64,000 nt of DNA. It comes from Eledone cirrhosa (lineage: Eukaryota). The notes beneath the pieces are model-generated. The model was not told the DNA's origin, did not search any database, and worked only from the letters and a program-made list of their open reading frames with translations. Position 1 is the first letter of the stretch. Every line of letters starts with the position of its first letter. The translations under genes and the position numbers were made by a program. This document shows positions 2,661 to 44,709 of this stretch, in pieces. The stretch is taken from assembly GCA_964016885.1 (NCBI GenBank), contig OZ024742.1, positions 144,522,001 to 144,586,000 of the forward strand. Direction: 5' to 3'.

Positions 2661-3127
2661 GCAGATAAGAAAGGTCGGCATGTGGAGAAACTCTGAACCT
2701 CAGTTTATATGTGGCTGAATATGCCTGACAAAACCTGGCAATACAAGCCAACTACGTAAGCATGAAGAAATGCCAAAGGTTGAATACGATCAATTCCTTA
2801 CAGCCAATTTGACATGTGATACATGTAATTTTCGAATAAGTCAGGACATACTACGCATTCAAAATTACATATTCATGATCCGAATCAGACTGTAAAGCCA
2901 AATAATGGAAGGGGTGAATTGTCTCACTCGTCTAACGAGCTCACTGTCATTTTGTATATTCTCCTGGTTTTATAATTTCACAAACTTTTTCCAAAGGAGA
3001 GAGAGCCGGTTTCTAACATAGATGTAAGACTCTCGCATTGGGATTTACACATCATCAACTTGGTACATATCTATGTATGACTGCATGTGTGTGCAGGCAT
3101 GGATGTTATTGTATGTATGCATGTACT

Positions 3128-3326
3128 ATTTGGATGGCCGTTGACTCTGCTGAATTCCTCCGCCCTTTACCGGGTCTTGTATTTCATCCTGCCGGGAGTC
3201 CAAATATCACCCTCCTCACCAAGCAAACTTGGTGGTGGTGGGGTTGCCGGTTTAGTCGCCTACGATCCGACCATGAGCCAGGTTGTACTGGGTTACATGT
3301 TACCAGTAGCACTCAAGAGCGACCTG
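3128..3326 (-). mobile_element. 5' part of an RTE-derived non-autonomous element
   Basis: Reverse complement of the GTCRGGTC...GGCGACTAAACCGGCAACCCC...GTCAACGGCCATCC head seen at 8322, 9427 and 40099. Confidence 0.7.
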
Positions 3327-3334
3327 AAATACCC

Positions 3335-3363
3335 ACATACATATACATACATACATACATATA

Positions 3364-3461
<98 letters not shown>

Positions 3462-3640
3462 AACATCCATAAATTGCATACATATATAAATACACATACA
3501 TACATAAATACACATACATATAAACATACATACATACATTACATACATACATTGATTAATACATTCATACATACATACATACATACATACATACATACAT
3601 ACATACATACATACATACATACATACATACATACATACAT
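3335..3640. repeat. Compound (TA)n/(TACA)n microsatellite
   Basis: Direct reading. Confidence 0.95.
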
Positions 3641-4176
3641 GATGGCTGCCCCCTCGTTATCGAGTATGGCCATCGCATGATATACCATTATTAATAATTA
3701 TTAATTAATTCTATCGTGCAATGCCTGTGCGTGAAAATATTTTTTAAAGTGAGGAAAGACTGTGCACTGAGCCAATCCCACTCTCTGAGCGACAATAGCT
3801 ATAACCGGAAAAGAAGAAAAGATCAACATCATCGGTAACTACTGAGCCGCAGGTTTTATATCGAAGTTATCCCAGTTTCCTGAGTTGCCTTCTCCTAGAA
3901 GAATGCCCTGACAAAGGCTAGGGGTCCTTCACTCCCAGTTGCTTAACCGCGCGGTACATGTGTATATATACATATTTACACACTTTCGGATGGCCGTTGA
4001 TTTTATGAGTTCTTCCGCTCTTTGTCAGGTTTTGTTTTTTGTCCTGCAGGGTGTCCAAAATCACCCTCCTCACCAAGTAAACTTGGTGGGGTTGCCGGTT
4101 TAGTCGCCGACGACCCGACCATGCGACAGGTTGTACTGGGTTACAAGTTACCAGTAGCACTCAAGAGCGACCCGAC
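3640..4176 (-). mobile_element. RTE-derived bipartite non-autonomous element, subfamily B
   Basis: Minus strand has an RTE 5'UTR motif (TGTCAGGGCA..TCTAGGAGAAGG) and an RTE-type 3' end (ATACTCGATAACGAGGGGGCAGCCATC). Flanked on both sides by (TATG)n; near-identical to 9427-10025. Confidence 0.75.
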
Positions 4177-4259
4177 ATACATACATACATACATACATAC
4201 ATACATACATACATACATACATACATACATACATACATACATACATACATACATACATA

Positions 4260-5801
4260 CATGTTTTCTTTGTTGATGACCTGAAGTTGTATGGGCCAAA
4301 TATCAATTACATCAAGAAACAATTGGACCTCATTACACAATTTTCAACCGACATCAAAATGAAATTTGGTGAGTCCAAGTGTGCATATTTGGCAGTAAAA
4401 CGTGGAAGAGCTGTGCCCTCCTCTAGAAATCTAGAGATGAACGGCCTGACAATACAACCTCTGCAGTCAGGTGACAACTACAGATATCTTGGACAGGATG
4501 AGAATGTCAGATATGATGGACCCATAAATAAGGAGAGAACCAGAACTGAATACCTCAGAAGAGTAAAGAAAATATGGTCATCAGAACTGTCAGCATACAA
4601 CAAATACATTGCCCACAATACTTATGCTGTGCCAATTCTAACGCCAACATTTGGCCTACTGAACTGGTCATTGCAAGAACTAAGTGAGATGGATGTTAGA
4701 ACTCGAAAACTTCTCAGTGTTACTGGCAACTTTAACATCAATGGTGATGTGGATAGGCTATACTTCTCACGCAAGGAAGGTGGCCGGGGTCTAAAATCAA
4801 TATTAACAACATATGAGACCCGGATAGTAACACTGAAGCAACACCTTCAACAGAGGAAAAAGGTTGGCAGCCATCTTGCCCAGGTTTATGAGCATGAAAA
4901 AAGAAATATCATTAGAATAGCGACTGATCTGGAGGAGAGATATGGAATAAAGCCTGATATAAATCTCTCACCCAGAGAAATCGGAAGATCCTATTCAATG
5001 TTCAAACAAGATAAGAAAATTGACCAATTTACAGAAAAAGTTGTGCGTGGATACTTGAGGCGTAAAACACAGACCATAGAGGGGATAAACCACTCAAAAT
5101 GCCTGGCATGGAGTTCCGACAAGTTTATGACATCACACCTTGAGGGATATCTCTATGCAATACAGGAACAAGAACTCCCTACCAAATATCTGCTGCACCA
5201 AAGAGGAGGGCCAGCAGCTGACAATAAATGTAGGCTATGTAAAACAAAGATCGAGGATGTAAGCCACATTGTTGCCAGCTGCGAAAGAATGTCATCTTGC
5301 TACTACCTCCCCATGAGACACGATGGGATAGCTAGAACCATCTGGAACGCACTTCGGAAAACAAAATTAACAACAAACGAGGAAGAATATATTGAGACGG
5401 ATGGCACTAAGGAATACTGGTGGAACCTGAAAATAAAAACTGCCACCAAATTAAAGCACAACCGGCCTGATATTGTAGTTTGGGACCACACATTGAAAAC
5501 GTGTTCTGTTGTGGAGATCAGCTGCCCACTTGATGTAAACGTTGTCAGAAAAATACAGGAGAAGGAGGACATCTACGGACCATTGATGAGGAGTTTACAA
5601 ATCCAGTATCCAAGATACACCTTTAGCTTCATACCCATCATTATTGGTGCTACGGGTTATATACCAACCCGCTTGGAACAAAGTATGACTGAACTTGGAT
5701 TTGCGGACAAAAAGCGCAGCTCCCTAATTCATAGTCTGCAGATGGCTGTGATAGCTGGCACCTTCAAAATTTGCAAAACATTCTTGCGATTCAAGGGATG
5801 A
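4260..5801 (+). CDS. Uninterrupted C-terminal ~510 aa of an R4/Dong polyprotein (no start codon; 5'-truncated)
   Basis: FVDDLKLY, YRYLG, RLYFSRKEGGRGL, AIQEQEL, CRLC-x7-HIVASC (CCHC), RHD, NRPDIVVWD..VVEISCP..KEDIY (PD-D/E-K RLE). Track ORF 4287..5801 extends in frame upstream. Confidence 0.85.
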   Translation, partial: HVFFVDDLKLYGPNINYIKKQLDLITQFSTDIKMKFGESKCAYLAVKRGRAVPSSRNLEMNGLTIQPLQSGDNYRYLGQDENVRYDGPINKERTRTEYLRRVKKIWSSELSAYNKYIAHNTYAVPILTPTFGLLNWSLQELSEMDVRTRKLLSVTGNFNINGDVDRLYFSRKEGGRGLKSILTTYETRIVTLKQHLQQRKKVGSHLAQVYEHEKRNIIRIATDLEERYGIKPDINLSPREIGRSYSMFKQDKKIDQFTEKVVRGYLRRKTQTIEGINHSKCLAWSSDKFMTSHLEGYLYAIQEQELPTKYLLHQRGGPAADNKCRLCKTKIEDVSHIVASCERMSSCYYLPMRHDGIARTIWNALRKTKLTTNEEEYIETDGTKEYWWNLKIKTATKLKHNRPDIVVWDHTLKTCSVVEISCPLDVNVVRKIQEKEDIYGPLMRSLQIQYPRYTFSFIPIIIGATGYIPTRLEQSMTELGFADKKRSSLIHSLQMAVIAGTFKICKTFLRFKG

Positions 5802-5881
5802 CAATTTCTTTTCTTTTACAACATTGCCACCAGGAAGGTGGCCGGTCAAAAAAATATACTCGAAATTAAGAGAAAGAGAAA
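4260..5881 (+). mobile_element. 5'-truncated R4/Dong-clade non-LTR retrotransposon (RT + CCHC + restriction-like endonuclease)
   Basis: Begins at HVFFVDDLKLY (RT catalytic motif) directly after (TACA)n. 3'UTR ends AATTAAGAGAAAGAGA, followed by (TACA)n. Confidence 0.9.
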
Positions 5882-6095
5882 ACATACATACATACATACA
5901 TGTTACCATTCGTCTACCACGGCAGTATTTCAGAAATAGGATAGACGAAATATGTAATATTATAGTGGTAAATGCTTGTACATCACGAGTACCACTCTTT
6001 GAGTATCCGCAACTAGAGTCAAGTGACATGCGGAAGCAAAATGCAGGTTTTAAAGAGTTTTCTTCTCACTTAATGACACTCATACATACGACACA

Positions 6096-6160
<65 letters not shown>

Positions 6161-6330
6161 CACACACACACTCACTCATACACGCACACATACACTCACA
6201 CACAAACACACATGCATACAAACAAACACACACGCCACTCACTTAAACACACTAACACACACACACACATATATATAAATACATATATATATATATATAA
6301 TTATATATATATAGTACTGTCATCATTAGA

Positions 6331-6512
6331 ATTGGCAGTATCGGTAGAGAGTCGGACGCCATGCTTTCCAGCATAGATACGTATCTTTACGGTCTGAGTT
6401 CAAATCCCGCCGAGGTTAACTTTGCCTTTCATCCTTACGGGGTCGATAAAATAAAGTACCAGTAATGTACTGGGTAAATGCTGGCCGTGTGCCAAAAGTA
6501 GAAACAATTATT
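6331..6512 (+). mobile_element. tRNA-derived SINE, family 1
   Basis: A-box-like TGGCAGTATCGG, B-box GAGTTCAAATCC, core GCCTTTCATCCTTACGGGGTCGATAAAATAAAGTACCAGT (resembles the Meta/Sauria SINE core), ATT tail; more than 12 copies in the window. Confidence 0.85.
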
Positions 6513-6539
6513 AATACTATAGATATGGCTAACTGCTGT

Positions 6540-6686
6540 CTTTTGAAAACTTTTGAAAGATCCATAGTTGTCGTCAGTGTGCGAAGGAGTGCAAGTCTCT
6601 AGCAGGTTTGAAATGCCATATCCGAGCATCACATCTGAATCTGACAAGCAATTGCAATACTCTTAGCAGAGTTTGCAGCCATCATG
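6540..6686 (+). mobile_element. RTE 3' end with C2H2 zinc finger and (TATG)n tail
   Basis: CRQCAKECKSLAGLKCHIRASH, then ATACTCTTAGCAGAGTTTGCAGCCATCATGTATG. Confidence 0.65.
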
Positions 6687-6749
6687 TATGTATGTATGAA
6701 TGTATGTATGTATGTATGTATGTATGTATGTATGTATGTATGTATGTTA

Positions 6750-7726
6750 TCTCTTTCTCTTAATTTCGAGTATATTTTTTTGACCGGCCACCTTTCTTGG
6801 TGGCAAGGTTGTAAAAGAAAAGAAATTGTCATCCCTTGAATCGCAAGAATGTTTTGCAAATTTTGAAGGTGCCAGCTATCGCAGCCATTTGTAGACTATG
6901 AATTAGGGAGCTGCGCTTTTTGTCCGCAAATCCAAGTTCAGTCATACTTTGGTCCAAGCGGGTTGGTATATAACCCGTAGCTCCAATAATGATGGGTATG
7001 AAGCTAAAGGTGTATCTTGGATACTGGATTTGTAAACTCCTCCTCAATGGTCCGTAGATGTCCTCCTTCTCCTGTATTTTTCTGACAACGTTTACATTAA
7101 GTGGGCAGCTGAACTCCACAACAGAACACGTTTTCAATGTGTGGTCCCAAACAACAATATCAGGCCGGTTGTGCTTTAATTTGGTGGCAGTTTTTATTTT
7201 CAGGTTCCACCAGTATTCCCTAGTGCCATCTGTCTCAATATATTCTTCCTCGTTTGTTAATTTTGTTTTCCGAAGTGCGTTCCAGATGGTTCTAGCTATC
7301 CCATCGTGTCTCATGGGGAGGTAGTAGCGAGATGACATTCTTTCGCAGCTGGCAACAATGTGGCTTACATCCTCGATCTTTGTTTTACATAGCCTACATT
7401 TATTGTCAGCTGCTGGCCCTCCTCTTTTGTGCAGCAGATATTTGGTAGGGAGTTCTTGTTCCTGTATTTCATAGAGATATCCCTCAAGGTGTGATGTCAT
7501 AAACTTGTCGGAACTCCATGCCAGGCTTTTTGAGTGGTTTATCCCCTCTATGGTCTGTGTTTTACGCCTCAAGTATCCATGCACAACTTTTTCTGTAAAT
7601 TGGTCAATTTTTTTTATCTTGTTTGAACATTGAATAGGATCTTCCGATTTCACTGGGTGAGAGATTTATATCAGGCTTTATTCCATATCTCTCCTCCAGA
7701 TCAGTCGCTATTCTAATGATATTTTT
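6750..7726 (-). mobile_element. 5'-truncated R4/Dong copy 2
   Basis: Near-identical reverse complement of ~4904-5880; ORF 6829..7653; 1-nt frameshift in an A-run near 7610; microsatellite on both sides. Confidence 0.9.
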
Positions 7727-7824
7727 ATGTTTGTATGAATGTATGTATGTATGTATGTATGTATGTATGTATGTATGTATGTATGTATGTATGTATGTAT
7801 GCATGCATGCATGCATGTATGTAT

Positions 7825-8302
7825 AGGACTAAAAACAAAACCTGTCAAAGGGCAAAGGAGCTCTTAAGAGTCAATGGCCATCCAAAATCACCGGGAGAGA
7901 TGACCCCTTAGCCTTTGTCAAGGCAGAATTCTAGGAGAAGGAAAACTCTGAAATAACACCTGCAACCCTGATGGTATCCAATGATGTTGACTTGTTCTTC
8001 TTTTTTGGTAAATATCTTCTTGGTTAAGAGAGTGGGACTGGCTTTGTGCAGTGCCTTTGCTCACTATAAAAGCTTCCGGCACAGGCATTGCTTTATAACT
8101 GGAGATCTCTCTGCACTTGTCGTCACATGGTACCATGGGCCCAGCACTGTGTGTCAATAATTGTCACAGGTGTAGTGTTTGTACCAGAGTTTTCAAGTCG
8201 CTGGCTGGACTCAAAAGTCACACTCGTTCAGCGCATCGGTAGGGGTTCTCCTACATGGATATAAAGTAGTGGCCATACTCGAAAACGAGTTGGCAGCCAC
8301 CA
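7825..8302 (+). mobile_element. 5'-truncated RTE-derived non-autonomous element, subfamily A
   Basis: Matches 8452-8927; (TATG)n on both sides. Confidence 0.8.
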
Positions 8303-8321
8303 TGTATATGTATGTATGTAT

Positions 8322-8927
8322 GTCAGGTCACCAGTTGGTGCTACTGGTAACATGTATCCCAGTACAACCTGTCTCATGGTCGGGTCGTTAGCGACTAAAC
8401 TGGCAACCCCACCAAGGTTTCATGGTGAGGAGGGTGACTTTGGACATCCTGCAGGACTAAAAACAAAACCTGTCAAAGAGCAAAGCTCTTAAGAGTCAAT
8501 GGCCATCCAAAATCACCGGGAGAGATGACCCCTTAGCCTTTGTCAAGGCAGAATTCTAGGAGAAGGAAAACTCTGATATAACACCTGCAACTCTGATGGT
8601 ATCCAATGATGTTGACTTGTTCTTCTTTTTAGTAAATATCATCTTGGTTAAGAGAGTGGGACTGGCTTTGTGCAGTGCCTTTGCTCACTAAAAAAGCTTC
8701 ACGGCACAAGCATTGCTTTATATCTGGAGATCTCTCTGCACTTGTCGTCACATGGTACCATGGGCCCAGCACTATGTGTCAATAATTCTCACAAGTGTAG
8801 TGTTTGTACCAGAGTTTTCAAGTCGCTGGCTGGACTAAAATGTCACACTCGTTCAGTGCATCGGTAGAGGTTCTCCTACATGGATATAAAGTAGTGGCCG
8901 TACTCGAAAACGAGTTGGCAGCCACCA
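8322..8927 (+). mobile_element. Full-length RTE-derived bipartite non-autonomous element, subfamily A (~606 bp)
   Basis: RTE 5'UTR motif TCTAGGAGAAGGAAAACTCTG fused to a terminal zinc-finger remnant CSVCTRVFKSLAGLKCHTRSVH* and 3' end TACTCGAAAACGAGTTGGCAGCCACC; near-identical to 40099-40707. Confidence 0.8.
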
Positions 8928-8940
8928 TGTATGTATGTAT

Positions 8941-9385
8941 GCGCTACTGGTAACATGTAACCCAGGGTGATTTTGGATGTCCTGCGGGATGAAAAACAAA
9001 ATCCGCCAAAGGACGGAGGAACTCAGGAGATTCAACGACCATCCAATAAAGTTTTTTCTTTTTTGCAGGAACGAGAGACTCCTAGTCGTCATTAAGAAAT
9101 ATCTCTAGGAGAAGGTCACTCTGATATATAACCTGCGACTTCGTATGCATCCAATGATGTAGACCAGTTCTTCTTTTTGGCTAAATGCATCGATGTTCAG
9201 AGAGTGTGATTGGCTCGGTGCAAAGCCTTTCCTCACTTAATAAAGCTTCAAGCACAGGCATCGCTTGATATGTGACACTTTTTTGCGATGCATGGCATTG
9301 TTGGCCATAGGCAAGTCCCTAGAAGGACTAAAAAGCTTAAGTATCAAGCGAAGGCTTTACTCGAAATCGAGTTTCCACCATCATG
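8941..9385 (+). mobile_element. Internally deleted RTE-derived element, divergent third variant
   Basis: Shares GCTACTGGTAACATGTAACCCAG, TCTAGGAGAAGG and TACTCGAAATCGAG..CACCATCATGTA blocks. Confidence 0.7.
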
Positions 9386-9426
9386 TACGTATGTATGTAC
9401 ATGTATGTATATATGTATGTGTACAT

Positions 9427-10025
9427 GTCGGGTCACTCTTGAGTGCTACTAGTAACATGTAACCCAGTACTACCTGTCGCATGGTCGGGTCGGCGGTGAC
9501 TAAACCGGCAACCCCACAAAGTTTACTTGGTGAGGAGGGTGATTTTGGACACCCAGCAGGATAAAAAACAAAACCTCACAAAGGGCGGAAGAACTCATAA
9601 GGGTCAACGGCCATCCAAAAGTGTGTAAATATGTATATACACATGTACATATGCATGGGTGCATGTGTAGTATATGCACGGTGACATAGAAATAGTCGGG
9701 CTGGACACCCGATCGCGCTGTTAAACCACTGGGAGTGAAGGACCACTAGCCTTTGTCAGGGCATTCTTCTAGGAGAAGGTGCCTCAGGAAACTGGGATAA
9801 CTCCGAAATAAAACCTGCGGCTCAGTAGTTACCGATGATGTTGATCGTTTCTTCTTTTCGGATTATAGCTACTGTTGCTTAGAGAGTGGGATTGGCTCAG
9901 TGCACAGTCTTTCCTCACTTTAAAAATATCTTCACACACAGGCATTGCACGATAGAATTAATTAATTATTAATAATGGTATATCGTGCAATGGCCATATT
10001 CGATAACGAGGGGGCAGCCATCATC
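9427..10025 (+). mobile_element. RTE-derived bipartite non-autonomous element, subfamily B
   Basis: Reverse complement of 3640-4176 with an extra ~55 bp segment; (TATG)n tail. Confidence 0.8.
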
Positions 10026-10058
<33 letters not shown>

Positions 10059-10095
10059 TGTATGTATGTATGTATGTATGTATGTATGTATGTAT

Positions 10096-10382
10096 ATCTC
10101 TTTCTCTTAATTTCGAGTATATTTTTTTGACCGGCCACCTTCCTGGTGGCAAGGTTGTAAAAGAAAAGAAATTGTCATCCCTTGAATCGCAAGAATGTTT
10201 TGCAAATTTTGAAGGTGCCAGCTATCGCAGCCATTTGTAGTCTATGAATTAGGGAGCTGCGCTTTCTGTCCGCAAATTCAAGTTCAGTCATACTTTGGTC
10301 CAAGCGGGTTGGTATATAACCCGTAGCTCCAATAATGATGGGTACGAAGCTAAAGGTGTATCTTGGATACTGGACTTGTAAA
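10096..10382 (-). mobile_element. Short 3' fragment of R4/Dong, copy 3
   Basis: LQVQYPRYTFSFVPIIIGATG...KTFLRFKG* plus 3'UTR; (TATG)n on both sides. Confidence 0.9.
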
Positions 10383-10449
10383 TGTATGTATGTATGTATG
10401 TATGTATGTATGTATGTATGTATGTATGTATGTATGTATGTATACAAAC

Positions 10450-10600
10450 AGTGTTACACACTGTGCCATGCAAAACCTCTCTAAGAACTAGGTTGAGAGT
10501 ACTCGTATCTGTGCGATACTCAGCCACTTGCGCGGTGATTTCACGAGGTGTTTGATTGTTCGAATAACTGTAACACGCGTCGGGGAAACCAGAAGAGGTC
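10450..10600 (+). mobile_element. Decayed SINE, family 2 fragment
   Basis: GAGAACTA..GTATCTGTG..CTCAGCCACTTGC blocks shared with 22430-22660 and 41300-41420. Confidence 0.45.
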
Positions 10601-18071: not shown

Positions 18072-18210
18072 TCATCCAGTGTCACGCCTCACTATCTCCA
18101 CATATCGCTTCCATTCTCCACGGTCATTCATAATGGTTATGAGCTCTTTCACTCTCTCCATCCCTGTGTCTTCTAGCAGAGTGTCTACGTAGGTGATTTT
18201 TCTCCTTCCT
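18072..18210 (-). mobile_element. 3' end of an RTE-group LINE ORF
   Basis: RGRRKITYVDTLLEDTGMERVKELITIMNDRGEWK matches the typical RTE C-terminus (GRP..TY.D.L..D.G....EL...M.DR.EW). Confidence 0.7.
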
Positions 18211-19440
18211 CTACAAGTCCTTCCCTCAGTAGGTTGCCATAACACTAACATGTTTACCACCTCATCAATGTGTTTGATGCAGTGGCCTGTGAGTCGCACC
18301 CTTTGTCTACAAGTCCTTCCCTCAGTAGGTTGCCATAACACTAACATGTTTACCACCTCATCAATGTGTTTGATGCAGTGGCCTGTGAGTCGCACCCTTT
18401 GTCTACAAGTCCTTCCCTCAGTAGGTTGCCATAACACTAACATGTTTACCACCTCATCAATGTGTTTGATGCAGTGGCCTGTGAGTCGCACCCTTTGTCT
18501 ACAAGTCCTTCCCTCAGTAGGTTGCCATAACACTAACATGTTTACCACCTCATCAATGTGTCTGATGCAGTGGCCTGTGAGTCGCACCCTTTTTCTACAG
18601 GTCCTTCCCTCAGTAGGTTGCCATAACACTAACATGTTTACCACCTCATCAATGTGTCTGATGCAGTGGCCTGTGAGTCGCACCCTTTGTCTACAGGTCC
18701 TTCCCTCAGTAGGTTGCCATAACACTAACATGTTTACCACCTCATCAATGTGTCTGATGCAGTGGCCTGTGAGTCGCACCCTTTTTCTACAGGTCCTTCC
18801 CTCAGTAGGTTGCCATAACACTAACATGTTTACCACCTCATCAATGTGTCTGATGCAGTGGCCTGTGAGTCGCACCCTTTGTCTACAGGTCCTTCCCCTA
18901 GTAGGTTGCCATAACACTAACATGTTTACCACCTCATCAATGTGTCTGATGCAGTGGCCTGTGAGTCGCACCCTTTGTCTACAGGTCCTTCCCCTAGTAG
19001 GTTGCCATAACACTAACATGTTTACCACCTCATCAATGTGTCTGATGCAGTGGCCTGTGAGTCGCACCCTTTGTCTACAGGTCCTTCCCCTAGTAGATTG
19101 CCAGAACACTAACATGTTTACCACCTCATCAATGTGTCTGATGCAGTGGCCTGTGAGTCGCACCCTTTGTCTACAGGTCCTTCCCCTAGTAGGTTGCCAT
19201 AACACTAACATGTTTACCACCTCATCAATGTGTCTGATGCAGTGGCCTGTGAGTCGCACCCTTTGTCTACAGGTCCTTCCCCTAGTAGGTTGCCATAACA
19301 CTAACATGTTTACCACCTCATCAATGTGTCTGATGCAATGGCCTGTGAGTCGCACCCTTTGTCTACTGGTCCTTCCCTCAATAGGTTGCCATAACACTAA
19401 CATGTTTACCACCTCATCAATGTGTCTGATGCAGTGGCCT
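18211..19440. repeat. 96-bp tandem array, ~13 units, derived from an RTE LINE segment
   Basis: Period 96 (CTACAAGTCC at 18211, 18307...); unit encodes RQRVRLTGHCIRHIDEVVNMLVLWQPTEGRTC on the minus strand. Confidence 0.95.
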
Positions 19441-29587: not shown

Positions 29588-29927
29588 TATATATATAAAC
29601 ACACACACTCTCTCTCTCACGCTCTCTCACACACACACTCACACACACACACATATATATATATATATAGTAATAATAATAAATTTGAAGACTAAAATCC
29701 AAAGAGGGCTCGATAAGGATAAATATATATCAAATATATAAGAACCGTAGAGCAAATATTTATTAAAATAACAGATTAAAGTTTAAGCAAAGAGTCGCTG
29801 CTTTCACCCTTAACGGGATCTTCTGAAACTAACAAAGTCAATCTGTAAACGCAGAAGTGGATATTTCAAAAAGCGTTGCAACCGGAGCAAGGCAGGAAGA
29901 CGATACTTTGGTTCGTGGAAACGATCC

Positions 29928-30449
29928 CTGGCACATAACATCACAGCTTCAAATTTAGCTAAACTACCTAGCCGTAGGAACACGTGCAACCCTGTAGTTA
30001 GTACTAACTGTAATTGTAGGAATCGGGTTGATTGCCCTCTATCCGGGAAATGCCTCTCTAGTAACATTGTCTACAAATGTAAGGTTGAAACACCCACGTC
30101 CCGTAGGGCCTACATAGGGTTAACCGCCAATAGATTCAAGCAGCGTCTTTACATGCATACCCATTCTTTTCGTTACCCTCTAAGAAGGAATATGACGTCA
30201 CTTTCAGCTTATATCTGGAGTCTAAAAGACAACCACACCCAATGTAAGTTACACTGGGAGATCCTAGCTAGGGCTAGGTCGTATAACGGAAATAAAAGAC
30301 CATGTGACCTCTGCGCCGCTGAGGCCCTGGAAATACTCTACGCCACAGACCACATCTTAAACAAAAAATCTGAGGCAATTTCGGCTTGTAAACATAAATT
30401 GCACAAAACTTTCCTGTATTACAGCCCCACGTTATACCCTAACGGATAG
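29928..30449 (+). CDS. C-terminal GIY-YIG endonuclease fragment of a Naiad-type PLE (open frame, no start)
   Basis: CNCRNRVDCPLSGKCLSSNIVYKCKV..AYIGLTANRFKQRLYMHTHSF..TSLSAYIWSLKD..WEIL..CDLCAAE..LNKKSEAISACKH: CxCx5C linker plus VY/YIG, R, H, E, N motifs. Confidence 0.85.
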   Translation: MAHNITASNLAKLPSRRNTCNPVVSTNCNCRNRVDCPLSGKCLSSNIVYKCKVETPTSRRAYIGLTANRFKQRLYMHTHSFRYPLRRNMTSLSAYIWSLKDNHTQCKLHWEILARARSYNGNKRPCDLCAAEALEILYATDHILNKKSEAISACKHKLHKTFLYYSPTLYPNG

Positions 30450-40057: not shown

Positions 40058-40093
<36 letters not shown>

Positions 40094-40098
40094 TGTAT

Positions 40099-40707
40099 GT
40101 CAGGTCACCACTTGGTGCTACTGGTAACATGTATCCCAGTACAACCTGTCTCATGGTCGGGTCGTTGGCGACTAAACTGGCAACCCCACCAAGGTTTCTT
40201 GGTGAGGAGGGTGACTTTGGACATCCTGCAGGACTAAAAACAAAACCTGTCAAAGGGCAAGGGAGCTCTTAAGAGTCAATAGCCATCCAAAATCACCGGG
40301 AGAGATGACCCCTTAGCCTTTGTCAAGGCAGAATTCTAGGAGAAGGAAAACTCTGATATAACACCTGCAACCCTGATGGTATCCAATGATGTTGACTTGT
40401 TCTTCTTTTTGGTAAATATCATCTTGGTTAAGAGAGTGGGACTGGCTTTGTGCAGTGCCTTTGCTCACTATAAAAGCCTCACAGCACAGGCATTGCTTTA
40501 TATCTGGAGATCTCTCTGCACTTGTCATCACATGGTACCATGGGCCCTGCACTATGTGTCAATAATGGTCACAAGTGTAGTGTTTGTACCAGAGTTTTCA
40601 AGTCGCTGGCTGGACTAAAAAGTCACATTCGTTCAGCGCATCGGTAGGGGTTCTCCTACATGGATATAAAGTAGTGGCCGTACTCGAAAACGAGTTGGCA
40701 GTCACCA
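40099..40707 (+). mobile_element. Full-length RTE-derived bipartite non-autonomous element, subfamily A
   Basis: Near-identical to 8322-8927; (TATG)n on both sides. Confidence 0.82.
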
Positions 40708-41433
40708 TGTATGTATGTATGTATACGTGTGTATATATATATATATATATTTTGAGTATATGTTGGTTAGAACACCAATACTTATATATATATATATATA
40801 TATGTTAGTATTGGTGTTCTGAAATAGCGATGCATACATGAATGTATGTATAATATATTTGGCAATATACTGTATGAACACTATGGAGCAGATTCAAATT
40901 GAAAAATTGAAACGGGCCATGAAGCACTCAACTAGGGCTTCCATAGAAAATCAGACATAGTTGCAAACAATTAATTAATAAATCGAACTATAATAAACAT
41001 AATAAAAAGTTCAACTTACAATTTGAATACTGGTTAATCCACTGATAATGAAACGAAGCTATCGAATAGGATCGACACAGCTTCGATCATTTTCTCACTC
41101 ACTCAATAATTCAATTAAGGCAGTAACCGATGTTTCTTCAGTCATTATATTTATCTTAGTCATTCACTCTCATTCTTTAAATGTTTTCTCGTTACTGTGG
41201 TTTTTACCTCTAATAAGCCTTCGGTAAAGAGAAAGAAACCAAGCAGGACATGAAATACGCCCCGGTAATATTTATATGGCTGATTGGAATCACAGTACAA
41301 GAAAATACATGTCACACTTGTCACATTTGTGTCATGCTGAATCCCCTGAGAACTATGTGCTGGCATTTCTGTTGTTCGATCAACTGGATCATTCGTTATC
41401 GGAAGTGACTCCAGTCCAACATTAACAATACAA

Positions 41434-43171: not shown

Positions 43172-43520
43172 TACCACACCACCGCCACTAATACCACCAA
43201 CACCACCACCACCACTAACACCACCACCACCACTAATACCACCAACACCACCAACATCACTAACACCACCAACACCACCACCACCACTAACACCACCACC
43301 ACCACTAACACCAACACCACCACCACCACTAATACCACCAACACCACCAACATCACTAACACCACCAACACCACCACCACCACTAACACCACCACCACCA
43401 CTAACACCAACACCACCACCACCACTAATACCACCAACACCACCAACATCACTAACACCACCAACACCACCACCACCACTAACACCACCACCACCACTAA
43501 CACCACCAACACCACTAACA
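43172..43520. repeat. Higher-order (CCA/ACA/CTA) trinucleotide minisatellite
   Basis: Translates to repeated PPPPLIPPTPPTSLTPPTPPPPLTPPPPLTPT blocks (~96-bp period). Confidence 0.85.
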
Positions 43521-43734
43521 AACGCCATCACCATCGTTGCAATCACTGCCAACATCACTCAACTCCACTAGTAATAAACAACAATGTTGTCATCCATAAT
43601 ACCATCCACCATTATCCTCATCATCACTACCACCACCATCACTACTACCGACACCATCACTATCACCGCCACTACCATCACGATGACGTTGGGTTCCACC
43701 ATTACTACAACCACTATCATCGTTAACACTTCCT

Positions 43735-43876
43735 CCCCACCACCACTGCCACCATCACCGCCATCACCTTTAACACCTCCCCCACCACCACTACCACCAT
43801 CATCACCATCATCATCATCATCATCATCATCATCACCACCACCACTACCACCACCACCATCACCATCATCATCACC

Positions 43877-43937
<61 letters not shown>

Positions 43938-44076
43938 CCACCATCATCATCACCACCATCACCACCATCATCATCATCATCATCATCATCACCACCACCA
44001 CCACCACCACCACCACCACCACCACCACCACCATCATCACCACCACCGCCATCATCATCACCACCACCACCACCAT

Positions 44077-44147
<71 letters not shown>

Positions 44148-44194
44148 CCACCACCACCACCACCACCACCACCACCATCACCACCACCACCATC

Positions 44195-44240
<46 letters not shown>

Positions 44241-44260
44241 CCATCACCACCACCACCACC

Positions 44261-44294
<34 letters not shown>

Positions 44295-44300
44295 TCATCA
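43735..44300. repeat. Compound (CAC)n/(CAT)n trinucleotide tract
   Basis: Direct reading. Confidence 0.95.
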
Positions 44301-44709
44301 TCGTCGGTGCCACCATTTAAACCAAACTCACAACCATCATTTGTTCCCACGCATTTATATGTACCCTCCACGTCACTCCACCACCACTAACACCACGACT
44401 GCACCGCCACTACCAGCACCAATCAGCTTCACCGTCACGATCACAATCCCGTTAACTATTCTACACTACCCCAATCACTATCGTTCCCATTAACACCATC
44501 CACTATTCCCATTCAACCAACTCCTAAATACCACAACCTCCAACACGACCAGTGTTCTACCACGAACACATCTTCCCCTCCAACTTCATCACCATTTTTA
44601 TCGCTACTATTAATTTTCACTAGCACATGCCATCACCATCACAACCATTACCATTTCCATTAACAGTATGTTCACTTACCATTTCACCACCAACCACACT
44701 ACTACTACT

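Follow-up and report, generated by a model that had tools for sequence, protein, structure and literature searches.

Copies of an R4/Dong-type retrotransposon lie in (ACAT)n arrays in one orientation in the genome of the octopod Eledone cirrhosa

Introduction

A window of 64,000 nucleotides from Eledone cirrhosa (contig OZ024742.1 of assembly GCA_964016885.1, positions 144,522,001 to 144,586,000; coordinates below are those of the window) contains three 5'-truncated copies of one non-LTR (non-long-terminal-repeat) retrotransposon, here called family A. Each copy is bounded on both sides by a tetranucleotide array that reads (ACAT)n on the element's own strand. The locus raises the question of why the copies lie in this repeat and in one orientation, and of whether the arrays were there before the element or came with it. 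From the junctions, neighbours and relatives described below, it is very probable that family A copies enter pre-existing arrays in a fixed polarity, whichever route they take. It is also probable, by analogy with R2 elements, that they do so since their own protein recognizes and nicks the repeat and primes reverse transcription there.

The first-pass annotation had assigned the element to the R4/Dong group and proposed (TACA)n as its target. In most insects, molluscs and cnidarians the Dong target is (TAA)n, according to the available text of PMC7998251, and other clades with a restriction-like endonuclease (RLE) include microsatellite-specific families (available text of PMC4640811).

Results

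Copy 1 (4263–5881, + strand) is truncated at the YADD-type motif of the reverse transcriptase (RT) and lies between an (ACAT)22 array (4175–4262, +) and an (ACAT)5 array (5882–5901, +). The remnant of its open reading frame (ORF; 4260–5801, +) stays open over 513 codons up to the TGA at 5799–5801. It covers the end of the RT, the thumb, a CCHC knuckle and a PD-E-K restriction-like nuclease, and copy 1 is 98.6% identical to an intact copy (L119). Copy 2 (6750–7724, − strand) is 5'-truncated and carries one frameshift; it shows a 1-nt insertion along with a 3-nt deletion, and the spacer at its 5' junction is degenerate. The array at that junction (7726–7824, −) reads ACAT on the element's strand, while the array at the 3' junction (6684–6747, −) is, on the + strand, the (GTAT)n tail of a fragment of an RTE-like long interspersed element (LINE). 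Copy 3 (10097–10382, −), also 5'-truncated, has a 5' array at 10382–10443 (−) and a 3' array at 10029–10095 (−), the latter following on the + strand the 3' end of a retroposon that we call S. Tandem Repeats Finder reported arrays at all six junctions, and these (ACAT)n arrays are the (TACA)n that had been noted on the sense strand.

The description of three copies with one common 3' end and different 5' truncation points was borne out, with pairwise identities of 97.4% (copy 1 versus copy 2), 96.2% and 97.6%. A segmental duplication had been raised as an alternative. The copies do not form one, because their six flanks outside the arrays have no mutual relationship and copies 1 and 2 are nearer to copies elsewhere in the genome (98.9% and 98.4% identity) than to each other. 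The proposed microhomologies fared less well. The CAT at 4260–4262 is indeed common to the array and copy 1, but the next base is G where other copies have C, and the motif of the family reads HLFFVDD. Where TACA had been claimed, at the 5' junction of copy 3, array and element overlap by a single T.

An exact 25-nt pattern of the family A 3' end matched 3,924 times in the 3.0-Gb genome, and its reversed control 0 times. The first 71 matches listed were taken irrespective of their flanks; 60 had a resolved 5' junction and 11 lay at the edge of the locus. A 5' junction was scored as lying in a repeat when 6-mers of that repeat covered at least 40% of the 40 nt upstream. By this threshold, an ACAT-polarity array was present in 54 of the 60 resolved copies (50/56 of the truncated ones) and the opposite polarity (ATGT) in one, while TAA, TTA, CA, TG and TA arrays were found in 0/60. 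(TAA)n, the Dong target in the narrow sense, occurred at neither junction of any of the 60. Random 40-mers from the window exceeded the threshold in 0.5–0.9% of cases for ACAT and in 3% for TA; TA, CA and TG arrays are as common as ACAT in the window, or commoner. Among full-length copies, 37/39 5' junctions lay in ACAT arrays. The (TACA)n specificity proposed for the family is supported by these counts, and the possibility that the repeat is merely a tail, lacking at the 5' junction, disagrees with the 54 copies that carry a 5' array.

At the 3' junction, where arrays are often short, 42/60 copies passed the same threshold. The phase there was nearly fixed, with one of two in-phase 8-mers in 50/71 copies. 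Genome-wide, CATAC occurred within 8 nt past the 3' end at 1,596 of 1,943 forward-strand ends; only the forward strand was used, the reverse count being inflated by double listing. As a control, an RTE-like LINE with a (GTAT)n tail was examined, and the repeat was found upstream in 4/17 resolved copies (of 20), which differs from family A with a Fisher P of 5e-7. Duplication-like matches across the insertion were found in 5/60 copies, versus 0.8 in shuffled pairs. The best of these, 31 nt in a degenerate array (L103), copies the interruptions of an older array. One independent public sequencing run contained ACAT loose ends at two internal positions.

Family A is a single-ORF element of 4.0–4.2 kb. 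A search with its 5' end gave 623 candidates, of which 40 were scored and 39 full-length loci analysed; these are the best matches to one 5' end and not a random sample. An intact ORF of 1,168–1,169 amino acids (aa) was kept in 8/39, in agreement with the earlier expectation that an intact element exists in the genome, and seven of these eight copies passed all motif checks. Two forms were distinguished by their 5' untranslated region (UTR): a short-UTR form of about 4.0 kb (435-nt 5' UTR, 17 copies) and a long-UTR form of 4.2 kb (about 633 nt, 21 copies), with one of the 39 unscored. The seven short-UTR intact copies are 99.4–99.8% identical to one another over 3.5 kb. Judged from these sequences, family A is young and has intact copies. 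Because ATATAAA precedes the start in 11/17 short-UTR copies versus 0/21 long-UTR ones, a few repeat-like bases appear to be carried along with the RNA.

Truncation points recur at reference positions 3358 (3 copies), 3446, 3957 and 3246–3248 (2 each), and at window position 5630 (4 copies). Spacers vary at some of them, which suggests pause or microhomology hot spots. An abundant repeat of about 190 bp, resembling a short interspersed element (SINE), lies at 6331–6519 and recurs at 13 or more further sites of the window; copies of it break the family A ORF in L049 and L107 at nearby positions.

The ORF of L049 matched RVT_1 (E 1.8e-24) and, weakly, zf-RVT; that of L119 has 1,169 aa. The best sequence matches in the PDB were R2 proteins (E 1e-28, 17–20% identity), and the predicted model, with a predicted local distance difference test (pLDDT) score of 87.8, had R2 complexes of target-primed reverse transcription (R2Tg, R2Pm, R2Bm) as its top fold matches (Foldseek E 5e-34). 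When 70 homologues were aligned, the positions C980/C983/H992/C997, R-H 1009, P1059-D1060, E1075 and K1091 were conserved. P1059-D1060, K1091 and the CCHC cysteines were invariant, E1075 was D or E in all, and the RT aspartates, GGRG and R-H were invariant or nearly so. None of the eight intact ORFs matched the pattern of a C2H2 zinc finger in residues 1–480. At the N terminus, where an R4/Dong protein is expected to have a diverged Myb/SANT-like domain, a three-helix domain is predicted, with confident helices at 22–74 and two conserved Trp. Its third match in Atlas was Rap1-Myb at 0.86, which we treat as a lead only. No Rfam ribozyme matched family A (the Rfam matches were spurious microRNA-type hits on repeats), and a self-made descriptor of hepatitis delta virus (HDV)-like ribozymes, run without a positive control, found none.

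The R4/Dong assignment is supported by domain layout, motifs and homologues. On its sequence, family A fits an R4/Dong-type element: a single RT ORF, a C-terminal CCHC and a putative PD-(D/E)xK nuclease, no N-terminal zinc finger, and a multicopy target. It differs from R2, which targets 28S rDNA and has N-terminal zinc fingers (available text of PMC7998251); family A has neither.

The copies stand in a cluster (about 3100–10450) that is a chain of retroposons linked by ACAT-type arrays. A second family, B, has 2,317 exact 3' ends in the genome, about 48% amino-acid identity to family A, and UTRs unrelated to those of A. Of 30 family B 5' junctions examined, 17 were unresolved, and 11 of the remaining 13 lay in ACAT, with 0 in the opposite polarity. 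Among 83 family A copies, the upstream neighbour was identified for 44 and the downstream one for 31, all in one orientation. All identified A and B neighbours are arranged head to tail and truncated at their 5' ends, and S neighbours are truncated at the opposite end.

S is non-coding, 540–610 bp long, with 3,084 candidates in the genome. It shares its terminal motif and (GTAT)n tail with the RTE-like LINE, whose 131-bp 3' end (6555–6686, +), with a C-terminal zinc-finger-like motif, has a polarity opposite to copy 2. Since S is truncated at the opposite end and shares these RTE features, both S and the RTE appear to be read from the other strand. S is likely to be a non-autonomous derivative of the RTE LINE; no transfer RNA was found in it. 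Two other partners were considered for S and set aside. One was family A on the same strand, to which S has no similarity; moreover, S is truncated at the end opposite to that of A, and the S 3' end matches an RTE. The other was the RTE ORF in L102, which belongs to a separate element.

In the window, S is represented by a 538-bp copy of type S1 (3639–4176, −, the strand being assigned from truncation polarity), an S1 copy with a 66-bp insertion (9427–10028, +), a 608-bp S2 copy (8323–8930, +), a 5'-truncated S2 copy adjoining the 5' array of copy 2 (7825–8306, +), and a diverged, truncated S-type copy (8941–9382, +). Further S copies lie between arrays at 40077–40721 (96% identical to 8302–8941) and 3129–3330. 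Copy 2 of family A sits in the RTE tail and copy 3 in an S tail. In 16/83 family A copies, the 3' array runs into an S end, the 3' tail of an element on the opposite strand. RTE and S tails are likely to supply part of the targets.

The nearest named homologue of family A is a protein of Argonauta hians (52% identity), its sister in the tree. For relatives found in metagenomes, flanks were inspected for 32 of 80 loci. One relative (L220, 43% identity) has (CTTA)n at both contig ends and another (L222, 36%) has it at the 3' end, so that the evidence for this repeat consists of two contigs, one with both ends. Among more distant relatives (27–32%), many have (TAA)n and several no repeat. A quick maximum-likelihood tree of 55 rows was built with no outgroup, without verified reference elements, and with the Shimodaira–Hasegawa-like approximate likelihood ratio test (SH-aLRT) as its only support measure. 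Families A and B, the Argonauta protein, L220 and L222 fell into one 27-row clade (SH-aLRT 100). This clade holds no TAA-labelled row, flanks being known for a minority of its rows. The (TAA)n-flanked relatives and the Bombyx and Pediculus proteins appeared only as a sister set to it, in a tree that is unrooted.

Two metagenome relatives in the TAA-type part of the tree (L268, L284) carry (ACA)n or (AC)n close to their 3' ends and are possible further target changes. In L220 (1–125) and L119 (400–460), the repeat is followed by AAA and then, within 50 nt, by a common CGGACGTG...AATT motif, possibly a conserved 5' signal.

Elsewhere in the window, a 96-bp unit is repeated 12.8 times at 98% identity (18210–19440) with an open frame of 497 aa on the minus strand; we take it to resemble the C-terminal region of an RTE-type LINE protein. 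A 211-aa open frame with a YIGLT motif (29814–30449, +) presumably resembles the GIY-YIG endonuclease end of a Penelope-like element. A degenerate (ACC)n/(CAT)n array of 1.1 kb (43173–44302) has a strong GC skew.

Discussion

R2-type elements nick their target and prime reverse transcription there, and these steps serve as a model for family A. By this analogy, the 1,169-aa protein would bind its own RNA, and its N-terminal three-helix domain and PD-E-K nuclease would select the repeat and nick the (ATGT)n strand. The RNA 3' end (…GAGA[A/U]A, probably running on into ACAU units) would then prime in phase. Synthesis would often end early, and the cDNA would join the upstream ACAT strand with an overlap of 0–5 nt or a few extra bases. 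Any target-site duplication would be mostly hidden inside the repeat. Families A and B would pile up head to tail because the junction arrays form new targets.

Several results weigh against this account. None of the 83 family A copies interrupts a recognizable repeat, and because no empty site was seen, the pre-existence of the arrays is inferred; the best indirect evidence for it is that opposite-strand neighbours cannot be co-inserted by template jumping. The purity of 5' and 3' arrays was uncorrelated (rho 0.15, P 0.45, n = 26). Insertion near one end of an array was considered and rejected, as 5' and 3' arrays have medians of 58.5 versus 46.5 nt (P = 0.18). The microhomology suggested earlier for the 5' junctions was weak, with at least 2 nt in 8/28 flush junctions (P = 0.12) and extra bases at 18/46 junctions. 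Of the six sub-threshold 5' junctions among the 60, two are borderline and two do not represent genuine ends, one being a SINE inserted internally and the other a local duplication; L165 lies in unique sequence, and only L100 has an (ATGT)n array of opposite polarity. Copies of the RTE used as control are older (93–95% alike), and three of the 17 junctions lie at or near the reference end; without them the count is 4/14. Finally, a fold search (VIA-align) with the N-terminal 71 aa gave a best Z of 6.2, no Myb row and no clear match.

Targeting could instead act through RNA–DNA pairing, with a loosely specific nuclease nicking many AT-rich sites and priming succeeding only where an (ACAU)n tail pairs with the (ATGT)n strand. 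This predicts the fixed polarity and the 3' junction phase equally well, and the switching among similar repeats (ACAT, ACTT, AAT) that related elements show would come easily with a self-templating tail. We nevertheless consider it unlikely. The co-resident RTE, with the same repeat as its tail, rarely has the repeat at its 5' junction; three family A copies (L163, L184, L186) have a long 5' array despite almost no 3' array; and the target tracks the protein phylogeny, A and B having the same target at about 48% identity with unrelated UTRs.

Still less probable is that the 5' arrays were created during insertion at short ACAT motifs, by slippage or by template jumps onto RNAs ending in ACAU. 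The ATATAAA before the start in part of the short-UTR copies speaks for it, as do the head-to-tail order of the identified neighbours and one locus (L136) in which two ACAT units foreign to the ORF lie between a 39-nt ORF fragment and the start of the next copy. Against it, many of the 5' arrays that adjoin elements with no more than 1–4% divergence are long or degenerate, with purity as low as 0.73, the duplication at L103 reproduces interruptions of an older array, and arrays common to opposite-strand S or RTE tails cannot arise in one reverse-transcription event. Random insertion with subsequent selection, or the local duplication of a single block of element and array, is scarcely credible: the genome is microsatellite-rich and an unusual linker is common to some tandem copies (L148), but the TA, CA and TG arrays of the window never occurred at the 60 junctions, polarity was 54 to 1, and truncation points and flanks vary between copies. 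Recognition of the repeat by the element's own protein remains our preferred explanation.

The closest known systems are the Dong elements of the R4 clade (Bombyx mori Dong; Darwinula stevensoni Dong1/2), which, in the available text of PMC7998251, resemble family A in encoding RT and restriction-like nuclease in a single ORF, in lacking N-terminal zinc fingers and in inserting into microsatellites. The RT proteins of Bombyx and of Pediculus, which is included in the R4/Dong alignment of that text, align with family A over the full length at 29–31% identity. Family A differs in its separate 27-row subclade and in its target, (ACAT)n versus (TAA)n. B. mori Dong also has an HDV-like ribozyme (available text of PMC3774820), of which our unvalidated descriptor found none in family A.

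In Octopus vulgaris, 51 Dong-R4 families covering 92.7 Mb are listed (PMC13282606, available part of the supplement), five of which have been active recently and account for 1,129 insertions with a mean length of about 4.2 kb (available text of PMC13282606). The available text of PMC9115989 mentions a Dong element of O. bimaculoides that has a full ORF. In their available parts, PMC13282606, PMC9115989 and PMC8967140 report Dong-R4 in cephalopods without a target; in the first of them the word 'target' occurs 0 times. Family A is likely to be among or close to these published octopus families, the comparison being by description only. No (ACAT)n or other tetranucleotide target for the R4/Dong clade was found in the available parts of the literature searched, a scope outside which lay Repbase, Dfam, patents, subscription papers and some supplements. 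The (ACAT)n target is different from the published (TAA)n; neither the element class nor the targeting of microsatellites in itself is new.

RTE 3' UTRs consist of simple repeats and RTEs generate microsatellites (Tay et al. 2010, available text of PMC2887409). The RTE-like LINE and S end in such a tail, (GTAT)n. Family A itself does not belong to the RTEs. In this genome, an unrelated clade appears to use the RTE and S tails as targets on the opposite strand, a use not described in the available text of PMC2887409.

Taken as a whole, the data allow a tentative reading, to which we give somewhat less than even weight: that an unreported R4/Dong branch moved from (TAA)n to tetranucleotides, with (ACAT)n in two octopod families and (ACTT)n in two marine metagenome relatives, and that family A is still mobile in this genome and uses arrays that an unrelated RTE LINE and its derivative S have left on the opposite strand.

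An unanswered question, relevant also to R2-type gene-insertion tools, is how site-specific retrotransposons switch from one target to another. Close relatives that differ in target, (ACAT)n versus (ACTT)n versus (TAA)n, together with intact, very young copies, lend themselves to direct domain-swap and tail-swap tests. If the reading is true, the intact 1,169-aa proteins, whose targets are one base apart, would form a natural series in which to map how an RLE retrotransposon reads its target and changes it. Because both junctions lie in simple repeat, read-based insertion callers are predicted to miss such insertions. This could be relevant to the absence of detected Dong activity in the available text of PMC9115989. 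For cephalopod genomics, the finding would provide a placement rule for thousands of Dong-R4 copies and would explain the mixed clusters of A, B, S and RTE.

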